IMG/VR virus record: IMGVR_UViG_3300031885_002559
DNA length: 20,000 nt
Reading direction: 5' to 3' (one strand)
DNA from: an uncultured virus (IMG/VR IMGVR_UViG_3300031885_002559)
Lineage: Duplodnaviria > Heunggongvirae > Uroviricota > Caudoviricetes
This document shows, piece by piece, positions 1-17,162 of the stretch (its first letter is position 1; every line of letters begins with the position of its first letter). The notes beneath the pieces were generated by a model. That model was not told where the DNA came from. It saw only the letters and a program-made list of their open reading frames with translations, and ran no database searches. The position numbers were made by a program, and so were the translations under genes.

Positions 1-15
1 CCGCAACGTAAGCAC

Positions 16-57
16 AAAACGTAGACGTAGACAAGAACTATTTCGTCTACGTCTACG
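16..57 (-). terminator. Intrinsic terminator after the HNH gene
   Basis: 13-bp inverted repeat CGTAGACGTAGAC/GTCTACGTCTACG (20-32, 45-57) followed by TTTT on the minus strand. Confidence 0.6.
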
Positions 58-618
58 CTATGCTCGCCGCAGCATGAACGGCTCCCAGTCCGGGTGCTTC
101 GGGGTAATCGTCAAGGCGACGATGACCTCCTTTGGCACAACGGGCTTGATGCGGAGCTTGAGACCGGCCTCTTCCGGCGTCCGGTTGGCCTTCCGGTGGT
201 TGATGTCCTTCCGGCTCCAGACAAGGTTGGTCCACGTGTTTCCGCCACCCCGGCTGCGAGGCATGACGTGGTCGAGCGTGCCGTCCGGGGCGTACTCACC
301 CGTATACGCGCAGTGGTACTTGTCGCGCTTGGCAACACCCCGGCGGTCCAGCTTCGGGCGCGTCTTGGGCATCCCCTCGTAGGCCGTGACTACGACCGTA
401 GGAACACGGACCTGACGGTTGGTCGTGCGGATGCACACGTCAGTCTCGCGGATCGGCAAGGCAATCCACGTCTCCCACGTACACGCCAGCATGGTCGTCG
501 TGTCGATGGCGCGCTTCTGGCCCCGGCAGATGTCGCACAAAGCCGTGCCAACGTCGGTTTCAGCAATCGCCTGCCAGCCAGCGTTCAGCACGAGCACTTT
601 TCGTGTGAGCAGTTCCAT
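58..618 (-). CDS. HNH endonuclease (McrA-like)
   Basis: VLVLNAGW N-terminus; RDKYHCAY and TLDHVMPRSRGGGNTWTNLV...NHRKANRTPEEAG HNH motifs. Confidence 0.9.
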   Translation of the reverse strand: MELLTRKVLVLNAGWQAIAETDVGTALCDICRGQKRAIDTTTMLACTWETWIALPIRETDVCIRTTNRQVRVPTVVVTAYEGMPKTRPKLDRRGVAKRDKYHCAYTGEYAPDGTLDHVMPRSRGGGNTWTNLVWSRKDINHRKANRTPEEAGLKLRIKPVVPKEVIVALTITPKHPDWEPFMLRRA

Positions 619-650
619 AAATCTTGGGCGGTGTTTGTTCTTTGTTAAGC

Positions 651-995
651 GTGCGCGAACGCGAGTACGACATCAAGCAGGAGATTTTCAGGCTAATATC
701 GCCTGCTGCCGGGCGCGCACGGATGCGAAACCGGTGGGAATACGTCTGCTGGCTCCACGACAAGGGCCTCGACTTCGCGCACATTGGTCGTCTGATCGAC
801 CGGCACGAGACCACGGCCAAGCGCCTATGGAAGCGCGGCACGAAGGAGAGGATGGTCCCGGCGGTCGGGGTTGCACCGACACTCGACGGGTCAAAGCCGT
901 CACGTGCTACTGTTACACCACGCCGGAAAATGGTACCGCCAGCCGGGGACGATCCGGCAACCCTCCGGTTAAAAGCCGGATGCTCTGCCTGTTGA
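651..995 (+). CDS. Small putative HTH protein
   Basis: GTG at 651 follows a GTTCT motif; KGLDFAHIGRLIDRHETTAKRLW resembles an HTH; the C-terminal part is antisense to two tRNAs. Confidence 0.45.
   Translation: MREREYDIKQEIFRLISPAAGRARMRNRWEYVCWLHDKGLDFAHIGRLIDRHETTAKRLWKRGTKERMVPAVGVAPTLDGSKPSRATVTPRRKMVPPAGDDPATLRLKAGCSAC
853..927 (-). tRNA. tRNA-Gln(TTG)
   Basis: Cloverleaf, anticodon loop CTTTGAC, encoded CCA. Confidence 0.9.
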
Positions 996-1006
996 GCTAT
1001 GGCGGT
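931..1006 (-). tRNA. tRNA-Lys(TTT)
   Basis: Cloverleaf, loop CTTTTAA, CCA. Confidence 0.9.
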
Positions 1007-1012
1007 ATACGG

Positions 1013-1096
1013 TGGTCGTCGCGGGGAGACTTGCACTCCCAAGGCTCTCAGGCTCTCGACCTGAACCCTCTGCTATTCGGGCTTAACCACGCGACG
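1013..1096 (-). tRNA. Atypical tRNA-Leu(GAG), 84 nt
   Basis: 7-bp acceptor, 8-nt connector, loop TCGAGAG, short variable region, CCA. Confidence 0.75.
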
Positions 1097-1115
1097 GAAA
1101 GCTGTTCTACGGACT

Positions 1116-1616
1116 GTGCCCGTACACCAAAGAAGGCCAGACCTCATCAACGAGGCAAACATCGCTGAAAGCAGCAGGGTCTACTGGAAACATCACGGTA
1201 TTCTGCTAGTACCCATCAAGGCTGACGAAATGGCCGAGACAGACATCGTGTGGCTTTCAGGCCAGTACGCGGGCCTTGTAAACGAGTGTAAGTGCCGTTT
1301 CCGTGTTAAAGTCACCGACTACGATTTGCTGATCGACAAAAAGAAGATCAACGCAGGCATCAAAGAGGCAGAACGCCTTAACGTCAGATTCTTGTTAACA
1401 ATCTGGTGGGGAGCCCAAAACGGTATTGGCGACGACGTAGCGTGGGCACGCTGGATCGACCGAGACGAGGCGAGTAAGTTCAAGGTGGTCCTGTGGGGAC
1501 GAAACGATGAACGCGACGACAACGACATAGACCCCTCGTACAGCATACCTACTCACACTTTCACCATAGCGATTCCAATGCTCTACGAGAGGCTGCGATC
1601 ACCCGCATCTACGTGA
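1116..1616 (+). CDS. Putative PD-(D/E)XK nuclease
   Basis: TDIVW...NECKCR fits the D...ExK pattern; 166 aa; GTG start after a GTTCT motif. Confidence 0.6.
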   Translation: MPVHQRRPDLINEANIAESSRVYWKHHGILLVPIKADEMAETDIVWLSGQYAGLVNECKCRFRVKVTDYDLLIDKKKINAGIKEAERLNVRFLLTIWWGAQNGIGDDVAWARWIDRDEASKFKVVLWGRNDERDDNDIDPSYSIPTHTFTIAIPMLYERLRSPAST

Positions 1617-1621
1617 CCGCA

Positions 1622-1676
1622 CGCCGCTTAGCACGCGACGAAAAAGAAAATGGTGCCCGCCGCTTAGCACGCGACG
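1622..1676. repeat. 19-bp direct repeat CGCCGCTTAGCACGCGACG (1622-1640, 1658-1676)
   Basis: Exact duplication; each copy forms a hairpin with a GTGCTAA loop on the minus strand. Confidence 0.9.
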
Positions 1677-1682
1677 GGCACC
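1641..1682 (-). terminator. Intrinsic terminator
   Basis: GGTGCCCGTCGC-loop-GCGGCGGGCACC followed by ATTTTCTTTTT. Confidence 0.8.
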
Positions 1683-1960
1683 GGTATCAAACGGAGCTTT
1701 TTAGCTTTGAAATCGAACAAGCACGAAACTTTGAGCTTGATCCTGATGCTCTACCGCTGAGCTACCCGCTCAAAACCAAAACCGTGAAAGTGGCGAGCGG
1801 GATGGGATTTGAACCCACGACCTCAGTTTAAGTTGTTTCGTCTCGCAGATTTCCTTCCGCCTGCGTTGTTGAGCCTTCGGGTGATAGCCTGATCTTTAGC
1901 CTGAATCTGACGATTACCCTGAGCTTGGACAGGACTGCCTTACGACAGCCCCACCCGAAA
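1683..1960 (-). ncRNA. Unassigned ncRNA with a permuted tRNA module (1743-1826) and hexamer tracts
   Basis: T arm, 3' acceptor strand and GCCA come before a 19-nt linker, the 5' acceptor strand and the D arm; TTCGGGTG/CACCCGAA helix encloses seven in-phase hexamers. Confidence 0.7.
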
Positions 1961-2725
1961 TCAAACCTGACCGTTGAAGATGTAGCGCAGCAGATGCGCG
2001 CCGATCTTCTTGAAGAGGTCCACCTCTGTCTCGTTGGCCCGCGAGCGCGCTCGACGGACAGAGCGCAGCAGGATTTCCGAGCGTTCCAGCAGCTCCGCCT
2101 TCTCGGCGGGCGTGACCAACCCCGACCACTCTTGCTCGTGGATCGTACCAACCGGCACGTCCACGGTCAGCATCTCAGTCTGAGCCGGGTGCTCCTTGGT
2201 GGCGTCGTACTTGATGACGACCCGCACGTCCTTCTTGGTGCGGGTCTTCACAACCTCACGCGCCCGGTAGATGTGCTCGCCGCGCTCCGGGTCCGCTGTG
2301 AAACCCTTGGCTGGGTCCAGCGTGGGCACGGCGTGAACGAGCGCGTGAATCTCCGCGATGCGCTTTTCCAGTTCGAGCAGAGCAGTTGCCGGAACGTCCT
2401 TGACCAGCACGGTCCCCGCGTCGTCGTCGAGAATGATGTCGGCGCGAGCCACGGTGTTGGCTTCAGCCACCTGAAACGACGCGTCCAGCGCCTTCTGGAG
2501 AAAAGCGCTGATCCACTTCAGCTCCTTGCGAACAGTCGATTGGATGTCCGACTGCCCCTCGGTGACGGCGGGCTTGCCCTCTTCCGAGGGAACGAACAGA
2601 ACGCGCTTTTCTTCAAACAGGTGGCGCTTCTTTTCAAAGGTAGCGGCCAAGTCGGTACGCGTCTTGGTCGCCTGTGTTTCGAGATTGGTCTCAACGGCCA
2701 GTAGTTCGTGGAGTCGTGTTGGCAT
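1961..2725 (-). CDS. Hypothetical helical/coiled-coil protein
   Basis: 254-aa ORF with protein-like composition and its own upstream promoter-like motif. Confidence 0.85.
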   Translation of the reverse strand: MPTRLHELLAVETNLETQATKTRTDLAATFEKKRHLFEEKRVLFVPSEEGKPAVTEGQSDIQSTVRKELKWISAFLQKALDASFQVAEANTVARADIILDDDAGTVLVKDVPATALLELEKRIAEIHALVHAVPTLDPAKGFTADPERGEHIYRAREVVKTRTKKDVRVVIKYDATKEHPAQTEMLTVDVPVGTIHEQEWSGLVTPAEKAELLERSEILLRSVRRARSRANETEVDLFKKIGAHLLRYIFNGQV

Positions 2726-2735
2726 ATCTGTGCGT

Positions 2736-2763
2736 AGCGTATACTTGTTGATGGTTTCGTCAA
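2736..2763 (-). promoter_or_regulatory. Putative sigma70-type promoter
   Basis: TTGACG-N16-TACGCT; same TTGAC-N14-GTATACG spacing as 6216-6243. Confidence 0.5.
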
Positions 2764-2782
2764 CAGAAAAACTCGGTCAAAG

Positions 2783-3325
2783 TCACCGCCGCCTAAACCT
2801 ATCGACGTAAACGGGAATCCGTGTTGGTGGTTTCACAGGCTCTTGTGAGACTTGTGGAACAGAATTGGTAGTCACCTGCTCAGGCGGTTTTGCTTTTAGC
2901 AGACGCCGTTTTCCCACTTCTTTGACGGCGATGACCTCTTTCGTCGCGCAATTCTCCGCCGCAGCTTCTTCTGCGGTCTCAAAGACAAGCTTGGCCCCGT
3001 TAGCTCGAACTACGATCCAGAACTTTCGCGCTTGGACAAGCACACCCGTTTTGCTGGGAACGTAAGCCGTCACGTCCCAGACAAGCGCTTTCATCTCCGT
3101 GATCGAGCACTCGCGCTCGCCTACGACTTCAATCACGCGCAGAGTCTCAAGTTCAGCAAAGCGCGGGCGAATACTGTCGATTTGGTAACCAGCCAGCGCG
3201 CTGGCAACTTCGTGCGCTGTCAGTGGGCCGTGGTGAAATAGGTGTGCGTATACACTCCAGCGCAATCCGGTCAGCAGTCCTGAGTCTTCAATTTTTGCGT
3301 ATGCTTCAGCACTGGTGTTGCGCAT
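2783..3325 (-). CDS. Putative winged-helix DNA-binding protein
   Basis: HGPLTAHEVASAL...SIRPRFAELE...GERECSIT pattern typical of phage wHTH proteins. Confidence 0.7.
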   Translation of the reverse strand: MRNTSAEAYAKIEDSGLLTGLRWSVYAHLFHHGPLTAHEVASALAGYQIDSIRPRFAELETLRVIEVVGERECSITEMKALVWDVTAYVPSKTGVLVQARKFWIVVRANGAKLVFETAEEAAAENCATKEVIAVKEVGKRRLLKAKPPEQVTTNSVPQVSQEPVKPPTRIPVYVDRFRRR

Positions 3326-3339
3326 ACCACTATAGAACG

Positions 3340-3372
3340 TGGTTGACCCGGTCGGCTACGATCCGACAACCT
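3340..3372 (-). pseudogene. Orphan tRNA 3' half
   Basis: AGGTT GTCGG ATCGTAG CCGAC CGGGTCA ACCA with no 5' half. Confidence 0.7.
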
Positions 3373-3448
3373 TGGTGGGCCTTGTGGGACTCAAACCCAC
3401 GGTCTATCGCTTATGAGGCGATTGCTTTAGTCGCTAAGCTAAAAGCCC
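3373..3448 (-). tRNA. tRNA with CAT anticodon (probably Ile2)
   Basis: Loop CTCATAA, GGGCTTT acceptor, A73; Ile2 versus Met is inferred. Confidence 0.8.
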
Positions 3449-3454
3449 AGAAAA

Positions 3455-3545
3455 TGGCGGAAGGCAGTGGACATCATCCACACCCCGGTTTAGCGGAGCC
3501 GTCGGTTTAGCAAACCGCGATAGCACGCTGGCTATTTTACCTTCC
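3455..3545 (-). tRNA. tRNA-Ser(GCT), 8/4 fold
   Basis: 8-bp acceptor GGAAGGTA/TGCCTTCC, 4-bp T stem, long variable arm, G73. Confidence 0.8.
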
Positions 3546-3551
3546 GTATAC

Positions 3552-3585
3552 AAAAGGCGGCTGGCCAGTTTCCCAGCCAGCCGCC
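3552..3585 (-). terminator. Terminator after the Ro60 gene
   Basis: GGCGGCTGGCTGG/CTGGCCAGCCGCC hairpin followed by TTTT. Confidence 0.75.
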
Positions 3586-3605
3586 GTTGGGCCTGTAGGC
3601 CGCAG

Positions 3606-5288
3606 CTATTCGTCAGCCACAGTCTCTTCGGCCTTGGCTGCCGCGTCACCACGGATGAAGTTCGCGATGATCGGCGGGGCCGACGCATCGAAACCTACGA
3701 CATCCAGACCGAACTTGTCGGTCGGATCGTTGACGGTGAAGTCGTTCGCGCACGTAGCCACGAAGACCGACCGGGCATCCCGTACGAACTTCTGCCGGTA
3801 CTCGCGCAGCGCCTGAGCCGGGTGGCGACCGCAGTTGACCTCACCGTCGGTCATGCAGATGAAGCCACCGACCTCCAGCTTGTTCTGGAGCGCGTACTGG
3901 AATGCCAGCGAGATGTCCGTCGAACCGAAGTTCGAGCGTAACGCCCGGTTCATCGCGTCGTCGAGCGACATACCCTTGCGGATACCCAGCTCCACGAACT
4001 GATGCGCAAACCCGAAGACGTGGCACTCTGGCTCCACGCTCAGGTGAATGAGCGACAAGGCCGCCGTTGCCTCGCACGAGCGAAGCACCGAGCCAGCGAT
4101 CTGGCTGCCCATCGAGCCTGAAACATCCAGAGCGATGAGCACCGGCTTGCCGCAGGGTACGACGTTCGGAAACGCCGCGTAGAAGGCTTGGTCAAGGTCC
4201 GCTAGGATCGACGGGACCGGGGTCCACGTGAGATCGCCCTTGATGCCACGGCCCTGCCCGTATACGCGGTGAGCGACCAGCACCGCCATCGGGTGAATGC
4301 GCGACTTCCGCAGGTACGCTGCGTCAGTCAGTCGGTTCCGCACCAGTTTGGCCGCTGCCGACAGCGGCTTCACCAGCCCGATGGAGGTCATCTTGCCGAG
4401 GTTACGGATCAGGGCCGTAAGCGGCATCTTCTGAAGCAGAGCCTCCCAGACGGCGAGGCTGTTCAGGTGCTGCGTCGGGATCGCCTCCCGAGGGAGGTTG
4501 CTCTCGACGATGAGTTCGATGACCCGCTTCTCGGAAGCCGTCTTGGCCTCCTCGAACGCCTTGATCAACTCGGGCAGGTAACGCGTGCGCGACGGGTACT
4601 TCGCGACGGTCTCCTTGGCCTTCCGCTTGACCTCCCGCGCACCCAGCACACCCATGCCGCCAACCATCCAGCGCAGAACCGAGTCCTGCGCGGCGGAGGC
4701 CGCCTTCGGATGAGCCAGACGCAGGATGTCTGCGTGGGTCCAACCGTCACGCTGCTGGTACTTGATCGCCTGAAAGGCCAACTGGTCAGCCTCCCGAGAC
4801 GTGTACCAGCCGCTGGCTGCCCGGCAGATAGCTCGTCCCCATCCACGCAGCGCGTTGATGTACTGCGCGAAGTGGAACAGGTGCGTGCCGATACGGCAAA
4901 CCTTGGGGAGTGCCGCTGCCGCTGCCGCCTTGGCTGCCGTGTCACCGTGGGTGAGCGCCAGCGCCAGAGCGAAGATGGCCGGGTCATTGCGGTACGCAAG
5001 GCCCTTGTCGGAGACCTCAGTGATCCGCTTGACGGCCCGAACACCGTCAGCCTTGATGCAGCGTACGGTCGCGCCGTGCTTCTGCTTCAGGAGTTCCGGC
5101 TCCTTGATGTAGTACGTGCCCTTCTCGACCCCGAGGATCAGGAAGCGGTCAAGGTTTGCCCAGTCATCGACCTGCCAGACAAATCCGCCGTCGGAATCCG
5201 GCACCATGTCGGTGCGGCCCGGCAGAGGCTGGGTAACCGGCGTGTTGGTGGCGCGCCGGTTGAACTGCGTCATGTTGATGGTTGCCAT
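3606..5288 (-). CDS. rsr: Ro60/Rsr RNA-binding protein (TROVE + vWA)
   Basis: LDRFLILG, KYQQRDGWTHADILRLAHP, MPLTALIRNLG, SRIHP motifs; vWA MIDAS DVSGSM; 560 aa. Confidence 0.95.
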   Translation of the reverse strand: MATINMTQFNRRATNTPVTQPLPGRTDMVPDSDGGFVWQVDDWANLDRFLILGVEKGTYYIKEPELLKQKHGATVRCIKADGVRAVKRITEVSDKGLAYRNDPAIFALALALTHGDTAAKAAAAAALPKVCRIGTHLFHFAQYINALRGWGRAICRAASGWYTSREADQLAFQAIKYQQRDGWTHADILRLAHPKAASAAQDSVLRWMVGGMGVLGAREVKRKAKETVAKYPSRTRYLPELIKAFEEAKTASEKRVIELIVESNLPREAIPTQHLNSLAVWEALLQKMPLTALIRNLGKMTSIGLVKPLSAAAKLVRNRLTDAAYLRKSRIHPMAVLVAHRVYGQGRGIKGDLTWTPVPSILADLDQAFYAAFPNVVPCGKPVLIALDVSGSMGSQIAGSVLRSCEATAALSLIHLSVEPECHVFGFAHQFVELGIRKGMSLDDAMNRALRSNFGSTDISLAFQYALQNKLEVGGFICMTDGEVNCGRHPAQALREYRQKFVRDARSVFVATCANDFTVNDPTDKFGLDVVGFDASAPPIIANFIRGDAAAKAEETVADE

Positions 5289-5370
5289 AGGTAATGGCAG
5301 TCGTACTTCCCGTATACGTTATCGGGTTTTCACCGCTGGCTGCTGCTACAGCCTGATGGTTTTTGACAGT

Positions 5371-5396
5371 CGTCCAGCAAGGGAATCGGCCAGACG
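5371..5396 (-). promoter_or_regulatory. Minimal Y-RNA-like hairpin in the rsr leader
   Basis: CGTCTGGCCGA-TTC-CCTTGCTGGACG reproduces the GCCGA/CTTGC stem of the Y RNAs. Confidence 0.55.
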
Positions 5397-5428
5397 AAAG
5401 CGACGAAGAGAAGAACACGAAAGAAGAA

Positions 5429-5559
5429 TGGCGAGCAAAGAGACGCAGTCGGAAATGCTGACCGCTGTGCTACCGCTACACCAACTCCCGGTGTTCGGGA
5501 GCCAAGGAGTCGAACCTTGTCCAACGGTTCCGATGATAACCAACTACTACGGCTCGCCA
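5429..5559 (-). ncRNA. yrlA: Y RNA, YrlA type
   Basis: Terminal stem TGGCGAGC/GCTCGCCA; T arm, then looped acceptor-like stem, then D arm; next to the Ro60 gene. Confidence 0.85.
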
Positions 5560-5562
5560 AAG

Positions 5563-6015
5563 TGGTGGAGGCGAGGGGAATCGAACCCCTGTCCTTATGC
5601 GCCTTGCGACGCGTTCACATGCTTCCCCGATTTTGACCAGTAGACTGGAGCCAGACCGGGAACTGCTCTCAGCCGGTGCGGTGAAGACCACCGCCGGTCA
5701 GCGCCGACTTGTTCGCTCGGCACCCAGACTAACCTGCTGTCGTCGGTCGGCCCAGCCTAGCAGGCGTCAGTTGGCGACCGTCGCACGGCGTTTAGGCCGC
5801 AGCGAGTTCCAGAACCTCGGTCTCTTCAAACTGAACGAGGATCGCATCCGGGTTGCGGATGATCTCCGTCGCTTCAGCGAGCAGGGACTCGATGTTCAGG
5901 GTATCAGTTGCTTCGTCAGCAGTTGATGTTTGCCTCGGGGTTTTACGTGGCCAACGAGACATCCACGGCATGTAGCGCACGGTCCAGCAACACAAGTCGA
6001 GACCTGTACGCCCCC
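5563..6015 (-). ncRNA. ssrA: tmRNA
   Basis: 5' GGGGGCG...CTCGAC; 3' T arm and CGCCTCCACCA with G3.U70; tag frame ends ELAAA-stop at 5792. Confidence 0.93.
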
Positions 6016-10941: not shown

Positions 10942-11334
10942 TCACCGCAGTTCAAAGTCAGCAGCCAATTTCACATTTTTGTATTGACCGTTCTTAGCGG
11001 GGCTGATCCGCAGGGAACCGTGCGTCTCTGGTACTGCGTCAACTGCTATCCTGTAGTACTTGTCGAGTTCTGGACAGTATACGATGAATAGGTCAGCACT
11101 TCCCCTGTACCCTTTTCGCTTATTGGTCCGGCAGTGCTGGCTGCAAGCATTCCAACGAAGAGCACCGCCAACGATACGACCCGTTTTGCATTGGACTCGA
11201 AACAACTGCCCGTCGTCATCCAGCACGAAGTCGTAGCGCGGCTTTCCAAACGGCACAGACACGACTTTGCCGTTGTTGACTAGCTTCGACAGGACCAAAC
11301 TCTCCGTTCGGTCGCCGCGTTCACAAGCGTTCAT
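10942..11334 (-). CDS. PD-(D/E)XK homing-type endonuclease (I-Ssp6803I-like family)
   Basis: GDRTE, VSVPFG..RYDFVLD, RVQCKTGR, DLFIVYCPE. Confidence 0.88.
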   Translation of the reverse strand: MNACERGDRTESLVLSKLVNNGKVVSVPFGKPRYDFVLDDDGQLFRVQCKTGRIVGGALRWNACSQHCRTNKRKGYRGSADLFIVYCPELDKYYRIAVDAVPETHGSLRISPAKNGQYKNVKLAADFELR

Positions 11335-11788: not shown

Positions 11789-12916
11789 ATGAGCGATCAA
11801 GAGTTTGACGTGGTCGTGCCGGACATCCCGATGCCGACGGTCGAGCAGTCGGCTGCGATCAAGGACGACTTCACGGGCGGGTTCCGCTTCTCCTTCGTGG
11901 GCAGCGGCCAAGGCGGAAACCGGATCGCTGCAACCTTTCTCAAGCTGGGCTACAAGCGCGTCTGCTGCATCAATACGGCAGATCAGGACATGGCCAACAT
12001 CCGGGTGGCTGACAGCGCCAAGCTGTGCATCGGCGGGGGCGGCGCGGGGAAAAACCCGGCAGTGGCCAAGGCCCTCATCAAAGAGCGCAAGGAGGACGTG
12101 CTCGACTTCATGCGCCGGTCATTCGGCCCGGAGTTCGACCGCACGTTCGTCTGCATCGGCGCTGGCGGAGGCACCGGGGCTGGGACCGCCGTGCAGCTCG
12201 TGGACATCAGCATCGAGCTTCAAAAGTCGCTCAAGTGCGAGGCCCAGAAGGTCGGCGTGATCGTCGCGCTGCCCAAGGCCAGCGAGGGCAAGCGCGTAAA
12301 CGCCAACGCGTACAACGTGCTCAACGACCTTTGCGACCTCTGCGAAAAGGGCTTCGTCTCTCCGCTCATCATCCTCGACAACGAGAAGATCGGCGCGCTC
12401 TACCCAACGCTGGCGGTTGATCCCTTCTGGGACACGGCCAACATGAGCGTCTGCTCGCTCTTCCACCTGTTCAACATCATCAGCACGAAGAACAGCACGT
12501 ACTCGACGTTCGACCGGAATGACCTGAAAACCGTCCTCGACGCCGGGCTGATCACCTTCGGGGCCACGCCGGTTGAGCGCTGGCAGGACGCCACAGACAT
12601 CAGCTACGCCGTCAGGAACAACCTGAAAAAGAACATCCTGTCGGGCGGCATCGACCTGTCCACCGGAACGACCGCCGGGGCCGTGGTTATCGGTGGCCAG
12701 TACGTCCTGACCCAGATTCCGCAGCTCCATCTCGACCACGCCTTCGACCAGTTGAACCGGATGCTCAAGCCCGGCAGCACCGTCCACCGGGGCATCTACC
12801 GAGGCAACCAGAACTCGCTGATCGTATACACGGCGATAGGCGGCCTAGCCCGGCCTGACGCGAAACTTGAAGAACTGAAGCAACTCGGCGATCTTGGCGA
12901 CGCCACACAGGCTTGA
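11789..12916 (+). CDS. Tubulin/FtsZ-family GTPase
   Basis: GSGQGGNRIA, INT..D, GAGKNP, GAGGGTGAG signature, ILDNE. Confidence 0.92.
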   Translation: MSDQEFDVVVPDIPMPTVEQSAAIKDDFTGGFRFSFVGSGQGGNRIAATFLKLGYKRVCCINTADQDMANIRVADSAKLCIGGGGAGKNPAVAKALIKERKEDVLDFMRRSFGPEFDRTFVCIGAGGGTGAGTAVQLVDISIELQKSLKCEAQKVGVIVALPKASEGKRVNANAYNVLNDLCDLCEKGFVSPLIILDNEKIGALYPTLAVDPFWDTANMSVCSLFHLFNIISTKNSTYSTFDRNDLKTVLDAGLITFGATPVERWQDATDISYAVRNNLKKNILSGGIDLSTGTTAGAVVIGGQYVLTQIPQLHLDHAFDQLNRMLKPGSTVHRGIYRGNQNSLIVYTAIGGLARPDAKLEELKQLGDLGDATQA

Positions 12917-13774: not shown

Positions 13775-13843
13775 TTGCGGGCAAGGGAGGATCGAAGGGG
13801 TTCACCTTGGATAGAAGATAACCCTTCAAAGTTCGGCCCGCAA
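13775..13843 (-). ncRNA. Minimal Y RNA without a tRNA domain
   Basis: TTGCGGGCCGA...GGTTATC...CCCTTGCCCGCAA. Confidence 0.75.
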
Positions 13844-13845
13844 AA

Positions 13846-13924
13846 TGGCATCCGTGACCGGACTCGCACCGGTTAATTTTCCAGCTTGAAAGGCTGGCCA
13901 CTCGGCTACTTCGTGCTCACGGAC
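13846..13924 (-). tRNA. tRNA-Glu(TTC)
   Basis: Loop CTTTCAA. Confidence 0.85.
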
Positions 13925-15054: not shown

Positions 15055-15191
15055 TTGACGAGCAAGGGTGTAGACGTGGATGTTTTAGCGCTCTACCACT
15101 GAGCTACCCCGGCGTTTGGAGCCGGGAGTGGGACTCGAACCCACGACCTCCTCATTACATTGAGATAACCCACACCAGATCGGCTCGTCAA
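15055..15191 (-). ncRNA. yrlA: Y RNA, YrlA type (second copy)
   Basis: TTGACGAGC/GCTCGTCAA stem, GGTTATC, then T arm, looped acceptor-like stem and D arm. Confidence 0.85.
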
Positions 15192-16994: not shown

Positions 16995-17000
16995 ATGATT

Positions 17001-17087
17001 TTGACGAGCAAGGGGTGGCGTGGGAGAACCGGGTTGCCCCGGCATTCCATGCAGTGATAGATAACCCACATCCAATCGGCTCATCAA
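17001..17087 (-). ncRNA. Y RNA without a tRNA domain
   Basis: TTGATGAGCCGA...GGTTATC...CCCTTGCTCGTCAA. Confidence 0.78.
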
Positions 17088-17089
17088 AG

Positions 17090-17162
17090 TGGCACGGAGT
17101 CTGGGTGCTGCCCCCAGCAAGACAAGTTTTGGAGACTCGCCCGCACGGCTGGTGCCCTCCGT
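17090..17162 (-). tRNA. tRNA-Trp(CCA)
   Basis: Loop CTCCAAA, G73, short D arm. Confidence 0.75.

Follow-up and report, generated by a model that had tools for sequence, protein, structure and literature searches.

What kind of RNA lies directly behind a gene of a protein family that has no described function, and do the two belong together? This question is raised by a 20,000-nucleotide (nt) stretch of DNA, here called the window, from an uncultured virus (IMG/VR record IMGVR_UViG_3300031885_002559). On its minus strand the window contains an open reading frame (ORF) of 254 amino acids (aa) at 1961-2725, with the stop codon TGA at 1963-1961. The product is a full-length member of the Pfam family DUF7873 (PF25283; E 6.6e-64, 216.4 bits against a curated cut-off of 27 bits, profile positions 2-243 of 244), a family that itself has no described function. 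One base past the stop codon begins a structured noncoding RNA (ncRNA) of ~320 nt that extends to the T run of a terminator (1641-1960, minus strand) and that we call the DUF7873 RNA. Our best reading is that the gene and the RNA are one copy of a widespread two-part module, a Ro-independent, Y-RNA-like ribonucleoprotein (RNP) module of large phages.

We examined the linkage of gene and RNA in 95 loci with DUF7873 relatives at 53-71% identity (14 viral, one from a metagenome-assembled genome and 80 metagenome contigs). Two covariance models were used, R1 for the 5' hexamer domain of the RNA and R2, built from 55 sequences, for its tRNA-like module. In 87 of the 95 loci R2 matched 3' of the DUF7873 gene, on its strand; two of these matches are truncated where the contig ends. 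Of the eight loci lacking a match, seven had at most 213 nt of downstream sequence; the other, L042, had 723 nt downstream of the gene (1080-1802) with no RNA match and held ORF-like sequence and an ordinary tRNA there instead. R1 gave one match per locus in 73 of the 95 loci and in the window, and none elsewhere in 441 kb. Relatives of DUF7873 were also found in 75 records from cultured phages, including those of Vibrio, Rhizobium, Gordonia, Klebsiella, Serratia, Arthrobacter, Ralstonia, Pseudanabaena, and others. All seven cultured-phage loci that we examined (Rhizobium, Arthrobacter, Vibrio, Gordonia, Klebsiella, Ralstonia, and Pseudanabaena; proteins 29-34% identical) had the tRNA-like module 3' of the gene in an unannotated gap of 300-1160 nt. 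Each gap contained one or two R2 matches of 39-64 bits, and two additional, weaker second matches scored 21-27 bits. When the ORFs of 79 non-redundant loci were compared all against all, DUF7873 was the sole conserved gene, and the next real neighbour family, a Ro60-like protein, occurred within 3 kb in five of these loci. The DUF7873 gene and the RNA travel together, with no other conserved gene and mostly without Ro60. An earlier reading of the window made from its letters (the sequence-only reading) had proposed a self-contained protein-ncRNA system whose RNA should recur behind homologous genes, and both proposals held.

All elements of the gene and the RNA lie on the minus strand. The 323-nt strand had a predicted fold of -119.8 kcal/mol (z -3.68), a stability that none of 100 shuffles equalled, and it was matched by R1 at 1866-1961 (85.2 bits) and by R2 at 1705-1852 (115 bits). 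The RNA is made of two conserved domains, a helix-closed loop of seven hexamers and a long stem capped by a tRNA look-alike of the YrlA type. The 5' domain is closed by helix P1, in which TTCGGGTG (1952-1959) pairs with CACCCGAA (1876-1883). P1 encloses, in order, the 8-bp hairpin P2 (GGGCTGTC-GTAA-GGCAGTCC, 1932-1951, with the GNRA loop GUAA at 1943-1940), five bases, and a loop of seven in-phase ARRNUN hexamers (1885-1926). These are AAGCTC, AGGGTA, ATCGTC, AGATTC, AGGCTA, AAGATC, and AGGCTA; all seven begin with A and have T as the fifth base. The unit AGGCUCAA lies 3' of P1 and is followed by ~45 nt and then by a tRNA body in permuted order.

The tRNA-like head is carried by a long imperfect stem, P4, whose 5' strand is at 1835-1863. 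The head starts with CTGA (1823-1826), the 3'-side strand of an anticodon-stem remnant that pairs with TCAG (1743-1746). A variable region of 4 nt, GGTC, separates CTGA from the T arm (GTGGG-TTCAAAT-CCCAT, 1802-1818). The 3' strand of the acceptor stem (CCCGCTC, 1801-1795), the discriminator G (1794), and CCA (1793-1791) come next and occupy 1791-1801. They are followed by a 19-nt linker (1772-1790), a putative trailer and leader that tRNA-processing enzymes would remove, and then by the 5' strand of the acceptor stem (GAGCGGG, 1771-1765), TA, and the D arm (GCTC-AGCGGTA-GAGC, 1762-1748), together spanning 1748-1771. The segment at 1730-1746 contains TCAG (1746-1743), which closes the anticodon-stem remnant, and about two hexamer-like units, GAUCAAGCUCAAA (homologue consensus GGATTAAGnTnA). 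A 40-nt tail and a 12-bp terminator lie 3' of these units. The 3' strand of the long stem (1688-1729) contains an inserted element, AGCUAAAAAGCU (1695-1706), and a motif, AGCTAAAA, that is kept in the subclade of the window. The RNA ends at an intrinsic terminator with its T run (1641-1682; 12-bp hairpin at 1682-1652) and a conserved apical sequence, CGCGTGCTAAGCG; homologue terminators have a similar apex, CGCG(T/C)G(C/G)TAGCGG. The sequence-only reading had described P1, the GNRA hairpin, the seven hexamers, the permuted tRNA, and the terminator correctly, in position and in wording, when read on the minus strand. It had also described four further hexamers behind the D arm; about two (1742-1730) stand outside the D stem, while the other two overlap it. 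A second, partial copy of the terminator apex, CGTCGCGTGCTAAGCGGCGTGCGG, was seen at 1613-1640 on the minus strand, directly 3' of the terminator.

Both domains are supported by covariation. In a MAFFT alignment of 55 tRNA-like modules (A4), all 20 pairs of the four helices changed on both sides, including 7 of 7 pairs of the acceptor stem, which covary, and 4 of 4 pairs of the anticodon-stem remnant (92.7% paired). In this alignment 97.8% of cells were paired, although the paired percentage of the T stem and acceptor stem is inflated because the pattern by which the A4 sequences were chosen demanded that these two helices pair. No slid register came close to this value and none of 500 shuffles was as high. 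The anticodon-stem remnant lay outside the selection and the D stem was only loosely within it (parts of its 5' strand and the loop were fixed and pairing was not required), and both covary too. Columns T40, T41, C42, and A44 of the T loop were invariant in the 55 modules, as were GGTA of the D loop and U8. With these elbow residues (T-loop TTC.A and D-loop GGTA) and U8 invariant, the module should therefore fold as a real L-shape. In the alignment of the 5' domain (A3), 11 of the 13 pairs of P1 and P2 changed on both sides, and none of 500 shuffles was as high; P1 was 93.4% paired, with changes on both sides in 6 of 8 pairs, and P2 had such changes in 5 of 5. RNAalifold on 17 sequences paired columns 34-43 with 185-194 as the flanking long stem P4, and these columns covary. 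Duplex energies of the flanking arms had a median z of -2.2 and fell below -2 in 36 of 66 cases. The same 17 sequences suggested a weakly supported candidate helix, P3, in which GGCU of the post-P1 unit (1872-1875) may pair with AGCU (1703-1706) of the conserved element AGCUAAAAAGC; its changes were one-sided (GU to GC, GU to AU) apart from one double change.

The hexamers keep their spacing across homologues. Among 58 distinct homologous loops there were 5.7 matches to ARDNTN per loop versus 1.6 in shuffled loops, and 54% of successive matches were exactly 6 nt apart versus 5.5% after shuffling. The base autocorrelation was raised at lag 6 (0.416 versus 0.248 shuffled, z 10.6) and depleted at lag 3 (0.141 versus 0.249, z -6.6). 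Insert-free loops are ~48-54 nt long, which corresponds to 5 + 7x6 + 1. The sixth hexamer is the least conserved and is swapped for a hairpin in many loci; in Arthrobacter phage Talia1610 it is replaced by an entire second tRNA-like module. With a period of 6 nt and not 3 nt, the hexamers are non-coding. The sequence-only reading had offered short coding regions for alternating peptides as another explanation of the tract, which in the window is open in two frames (ORF 1828-2151). In addition to the depletion at lag 3, homologues lose the frame at units of 7-9 nt and at hairpins inserted in the tract, and the tract sits within a covarying helix. We therefore give this explanation next to no credence. 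Binding sites for the protein encoded upstream, the use that reading preferred, is a reasonable inference. By eye, the consensus of the hexamer shifts with the clade, from AGGCUN in the window to AGACUN in Arthrobacter and AAACUN in Vibrio, and in these sequences such a shift would fit co-evolution with a reader. A pairing between the first and last hexamers proposed by RNAalifold was rejected, the changes being one-sided only and the AGACU/AAACU units being unable to pair in this way.

The position of the RNA so close to its gene could have a simpler meaning. The RNA may be a cis-acting element of the 3' untranslated region (3' UTR), in which the tRNA-like head would serve as RNase P punctuation that sets and stabilises the 3' end of the DUF7873 mRNA in a tRNA island, with no function in trans. 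R1 matches started no more than 40 nt past the protein match in 52 of 73 loci, which places the RNA 1-40 nt past the stop codon in these loci. The module often lies among tRNA genes, and some members hold an ordinary tRNA inside the transcript. A consensus scan of 1400-3500 returned no promoter-like site, in particular none between gene and RNA, and did not confirm the promoter that the sequence-only reading had assigned to the system. Punctuation, however, needs no loop of seven hexamers, no long covarying stem, and no conserved terminator apex. The remaining loci with an R1 match, about 20, keep the RNA despite 48-508 nt, sometimes with a whole small ORF, between it and the gene, and the annotation of Klebsiella phage FBKp24 places a promoter between the two. 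We consider a purely cis-acting role unlikely.

In 66 distinct modules the bases after the discriminator were CCA in 60, CCT in four, CTA in one, and CCC in one, in agreement with the permuted-order tRNA described before. The linker that follows is 3-38 nt long (101-119 nt in three loci, L040, L055, and L092) and its sequence is not conserved. At the end of the linker, U preceded the 5' strand of the acceptor stem in 42 of 69 modules, and A or U followed CCA in 61 of 69. Linker ends such as these resemble an RNase E-type trailer and an RNase P leader in bacterial tRNA maturation. According to Chen et al. 2014 (PMC4201824), the YrlA of Mycobacterium smegmatis is alone among YrlAs in having a 7-bp acceptor stem, a feature shared by the DUF7873 RNA; RNase P cleaves this YrlA both in vivo and in vitro, and its 5' half gains a CCA end. 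This cleavage gives the idea of a two-piece RNA, already put forward in the sequence-only reading, a direct precedent in what that paper reports, and by analogy with it removal of the linker from the DUF7873 RNA is plausible.

Charging of the product, which the same reading had suggested, is unlikely. The discriminator varied among the 66 modules (T in 26, C in 20, G in 18, A in two) with no conserved identity set, a G3:U70 pair was present in one of the 66, and there is no anticodon, which together make aminoacylation unlikely. The absence of G3:U70 had been read correctly; position 3 of the acceptor stem in the window is G paired with C. Standard searches agree that this is not an ordinary tRNA. 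ARAGORN called no tRNA at the DUF7873 RNA, and the Rfam tRNA model scored 17.6 bits against a cut-off of 29, with no cloverleaf of standard order with an anticodon arm.

The order T arm, acceptor 3' strand, CCA, spacer, and acceptor 5' strand is also that of permuted transfer-messenger RNA (tmRNA) genes, and the DUF7873 RNA has this permuted order in common with two-piece tmRNAs (RF04321, RF01850, and relatives); the spacer that separates CCA from the acceptor 5' strand, excised in those tmRNAs, may be removed here as well. This gene order, the conserved CCA, and a weak match of the Vibrio phage copy to beta_tmRNA (25 bits against a gathering score of 84) could suggest an RNA in two pieces that resembles tmRNA, or is aminoacylated in some other way, and enters the ribosome. 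We regard this as very unlikely. The variable discriminator, in which A is rare, and the near absence of G3:U70 speak against it. The Rfam tmRNA model reached 7.3 bits on the T arm only, and tmRNA_permuted had no match on the DUF7873 RNA; the sole such match in the window (5508-5595) is on a tmRNA. Unlike tmRNA, the DUF7873 RNA has a full, real D stem and a remnant of the anticodon stem, and no pseudoknots were detected in it. SmpB is the dedicated small protein partner of tmRNA, and DUF7873 is unrelated to it. A tag peptide downstream of GCUAAAAAGC was rejected as a candidate by eye; the frames of homologues end at differing places and lengths, and no conserved tag was found. The window moreover already holds a full tmRNA. 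This is a one-piece tmRNA at 5563-6015 on the minus strand (107 bits); compared with the Rfam model, its tag region carries ~100 nt of inserted sequence, and its tag frame may be unusually long.

Two departures from the usual layout were seen among the homologues. Two permuted heads occur in one RNA in Arthrobacter phage Talia1610 (L097, 2786-2914 and 2941-3092), Klebsiella phage FBKp24 (L102, 2365-2425 and 2556-2651), and Gordonia phage Fryberger (L099). In FBKp24 an annotated 'tRNA-Sup-TTA' (2512-2591) overlaps a permuted head, and this call is probably wrong. One subclade has a tRNA of ordinary appearance (Arg-TCT, Cys, or Thr-TGT) between the permuted module and the shared terminator, on the same presumed transcript (L007, 4026-4098; L010, 4254-4325; L011, 4033-4105; L012, 4294-4366; also L061, L063, L086, and L087). 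These extra tRNAs had no encoded CCA where their sequence was read.

The closest likeness of the DUF7873 RNA is to the Y RNAs. The Rfam YrlA model (RF02553) aligned with it from end to end (model positions 1-114) at 37.3 bits and E 9e-7, below the gathering score of 69 bits, and with the inner Ro-side helix of the model deleted. Both have a tRNA look-alike that is open on the anticodon side and closed on the acceptor side and stands on a stem to which the 5' and 3' portions of the RNA both contribute; both have invariant elbow residues in the T loop and D loop, and both occur in large phages. The DUF7873 RNA differs in its gene-encoded CCA, its extra 5' domain of ~95 nt with the seven hexamers, its total length (~320 nt versus ~115-150 nt), and its linkage to DUF7873 and not to Ro60. 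The window itself contains four Y RNAs on the minus strand (5432-5553, ~13790-13850, 15055-15188, and ~17000-17090) with a Ro-type stem of the form GAGCCGA ... GGTTATC ... CTTGCTCG. GGTTATC occurs five times in the window versus 0.98 expected, four of these on the minus strand. None of the four Y RNAs reached the Rfam gathering score. A YrlA tRNA-like head is present in the Y RNA at 15055-15188, with the order acceptor-T-CCA-AAC-acceptor; the DUF7873 RNA is thus not alone in encoding CCA.

Could the DUF7873 RNA then be an ordinary Y RNA, a YrlA paralogue bound by a Ro60 protein of the phage or the host, with DUF7873 merely a neighbour? The match to the whole YrlA model suggests so, and the best score for a clearly Ro-type YrlA of the window was no higher (35.6 bits, also below the gathering score). 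The YrlA score alone therefore cannot separate the two kinds of RNA. The window also encodes a Ro60 orthologue with TROVE and Ro60 von Willebrand factor A (vWA) domains at 3606-5288 on the minus strand, 880 nt upstream of the DUF7873 gene. What separates them is the site for Ro60. In PMC4201824, GNCGAAN0-1G near the 5' end is given as the likely Ro60 contact. This motif occurred in two of 66 DUF7873 RNA modules versus 2.0 in shuffles, that is, at the chance level, and GGCGGAAGG and GACGAAAC in the RNA of the window do not fit it. The lack of the Ro-binding element that distinguished this RNA from the four Y RNAs in the sequence-only reading thus extends to its homologues, and by this motif the RNA is not an ordinary YrlA. 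The deleted Ro-side helix and two scores under the gathering threshold point the same way, as does the linkage to DUF7873 in 87 of 95 loci versus a Ro60-like gene in 5 of 79. A TROVE domain was encoded in one of four cultured carrier phage genomes and no such gene was present in the other three. Table S2 of PMC4201824 lists 22 phage YrlAs, all Ro60-adjacent (20 from mycobacteriophages, one each from Bacillus phage G and Caulobacter phage CcrColossus), and none of the genera that carry the DUF7873 RNA here is among them; Table S1 has no entry matching 'phage'. We consider an ordinary Ro60-bound YrlA quite improbable. The best reading of the DUF7873 RNA is as a Ro-independent relative of Y RNAs and not as an ordinary YrlA, tRNA, or tmRNA. 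A search of titles and abstracts on YrlA, Y RNAs of phages, and permuted tRNAs found no description of the module.

DUF7873 is a large family. A word-indexed search returned 1380 homologues at E <= 0.001 and an exhaustive search returned relatives in 2276 clusters at 50% identity; nearly all members among the 150 matches listed are ~250 aa long. The AlphaFold2 model, made from an alignment of 132 sequences, is confident (pLDDT 95.5, pTM 0.85) and predicts four long helices and long beta hairpins. No model in PHROGs, PADLOC, or NCBIfam matched the protein, a sequence profile search of the PDB gave no matches, and a search of the ESM Atlas returned DUF7873 clusters only. Foldseek searches of the PDB with two models and a fold search of BFVD gave no match at E <= 0.001. 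A full-text literature search on the name DUF7873 found no paper, and megablast of window positions 1-6000 against cultured phages found no match.

Based on these results, we propose the following mechanism, to which we give a probability of about 0.5. A structured ncRNA of ~320 nt would be transcribed right behind the DUF7873 gene and would end at the conserved terminator. DUF7873 and the RNA would form an RNP, by analogy with Ro60 and Y RNA or SmpB and tmRNA. RNase P would cut before the 5' strand of the acceptor stem and exonucleases would trim the linker back to CCA, leaving two pieces that the acceptor stem and the long stem would hold together, with a nuclease-resistant tRNA-like end. 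The hexamers would serve an oligomeric protein, most likely DUF7873, as a platform with multiple sites, and the tRNA-shaped head would act as bait or tether by engaging host enzymes or factors that recognise the elbow and acceptor end of tRNA. Evenly spaced short repeats are read by a ring protein in the case of TRAP on the trp leader. The DUF7873 RNA likewise has short, evenly spaced, degenerate repeats in single-stranded RNA, and the comparison is an analogy only. The period here is 6 nt and the seven units lie in a helix-closed loop, whereas DUF7873 has no fold likeness to TRAP and its oligomer is hypothetical.

Several observations weigh against this proposal, in addition to the effect of sequence selection on the paired percentage noted above. 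Seventeen loci had an R2 match and no R1 match, and the hexamer loop was unrecognisable in the most distant carriers (Klebsiella, Ralstonia, and Pseudanabaena). Should the protein read the RNA in all members, its site may be the tRNA-like head and not the hexamers. Six of the 66 modules lack CCA. The fold matches of DUF7873 were all non-significant and included no known RNA binder. Lastly, the Ro60 gene near the DUF7873 gene in the window makes a Ro link conceivable at this locus.

A more far-reaching version of the proposed mechanism is tentative, with the odds clearly against it. It would make the module a new class of phage RNP in which an oligomer of DUF7873 reads the seven repeats, while the tRNA-processing enzymes of the host cut the RNA in two and leave a tRNA body that lacks an anticodon and has a true CCA end. 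This body would trap or mislead host factors acting on the tRNA elbow or acceptor end, such as tRNA-directed defence enzymes, and would so protect the large tRNA set of the phage during infection.

Two kinds of bacterial RNA are known to borrow the shape of tRNA, Y RNAs and tmRNA, each with a dedicated protein; the DUF7873 RNA and its protein would be a third such pairing, and the RNA would be a YrlA-type tRNA mimic that is not bound to Ro60. The association links a protein family of over 2000 clusters (at 50% identity) with a large and elaborate RNA missing from Rfam and from the searched literature, and it offers a first functional handle on DUF7873. The RNA lies in unannotated gaps of cultured phages of Vibrio, Rhizobium, Gordonia, Arthrobacter, Klebsiella, Ralstonia, and cyanobacteria, which provides tractable phage-host pairs for asking what tRNA mimicry does in infection.

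The remainder of the window gives some indication of the phage that carries this copy. The sequencing runs listed as containing the window are all of sediment-metagenome DNA, with no RNA run among them. The window contains 23-25 tRNA genes and a tubulin/TubZ-like gene at 11789-12916 on the plus strand. There are also genes for endonucleases of the homing type, one HNH (58-618) and two PD-(D/E)XK (10942-11334 and 1116-1616), and an ORF with a PAS domain. We interpret the window as the RNA island of a large sediment phage, probably a jumbo phage.

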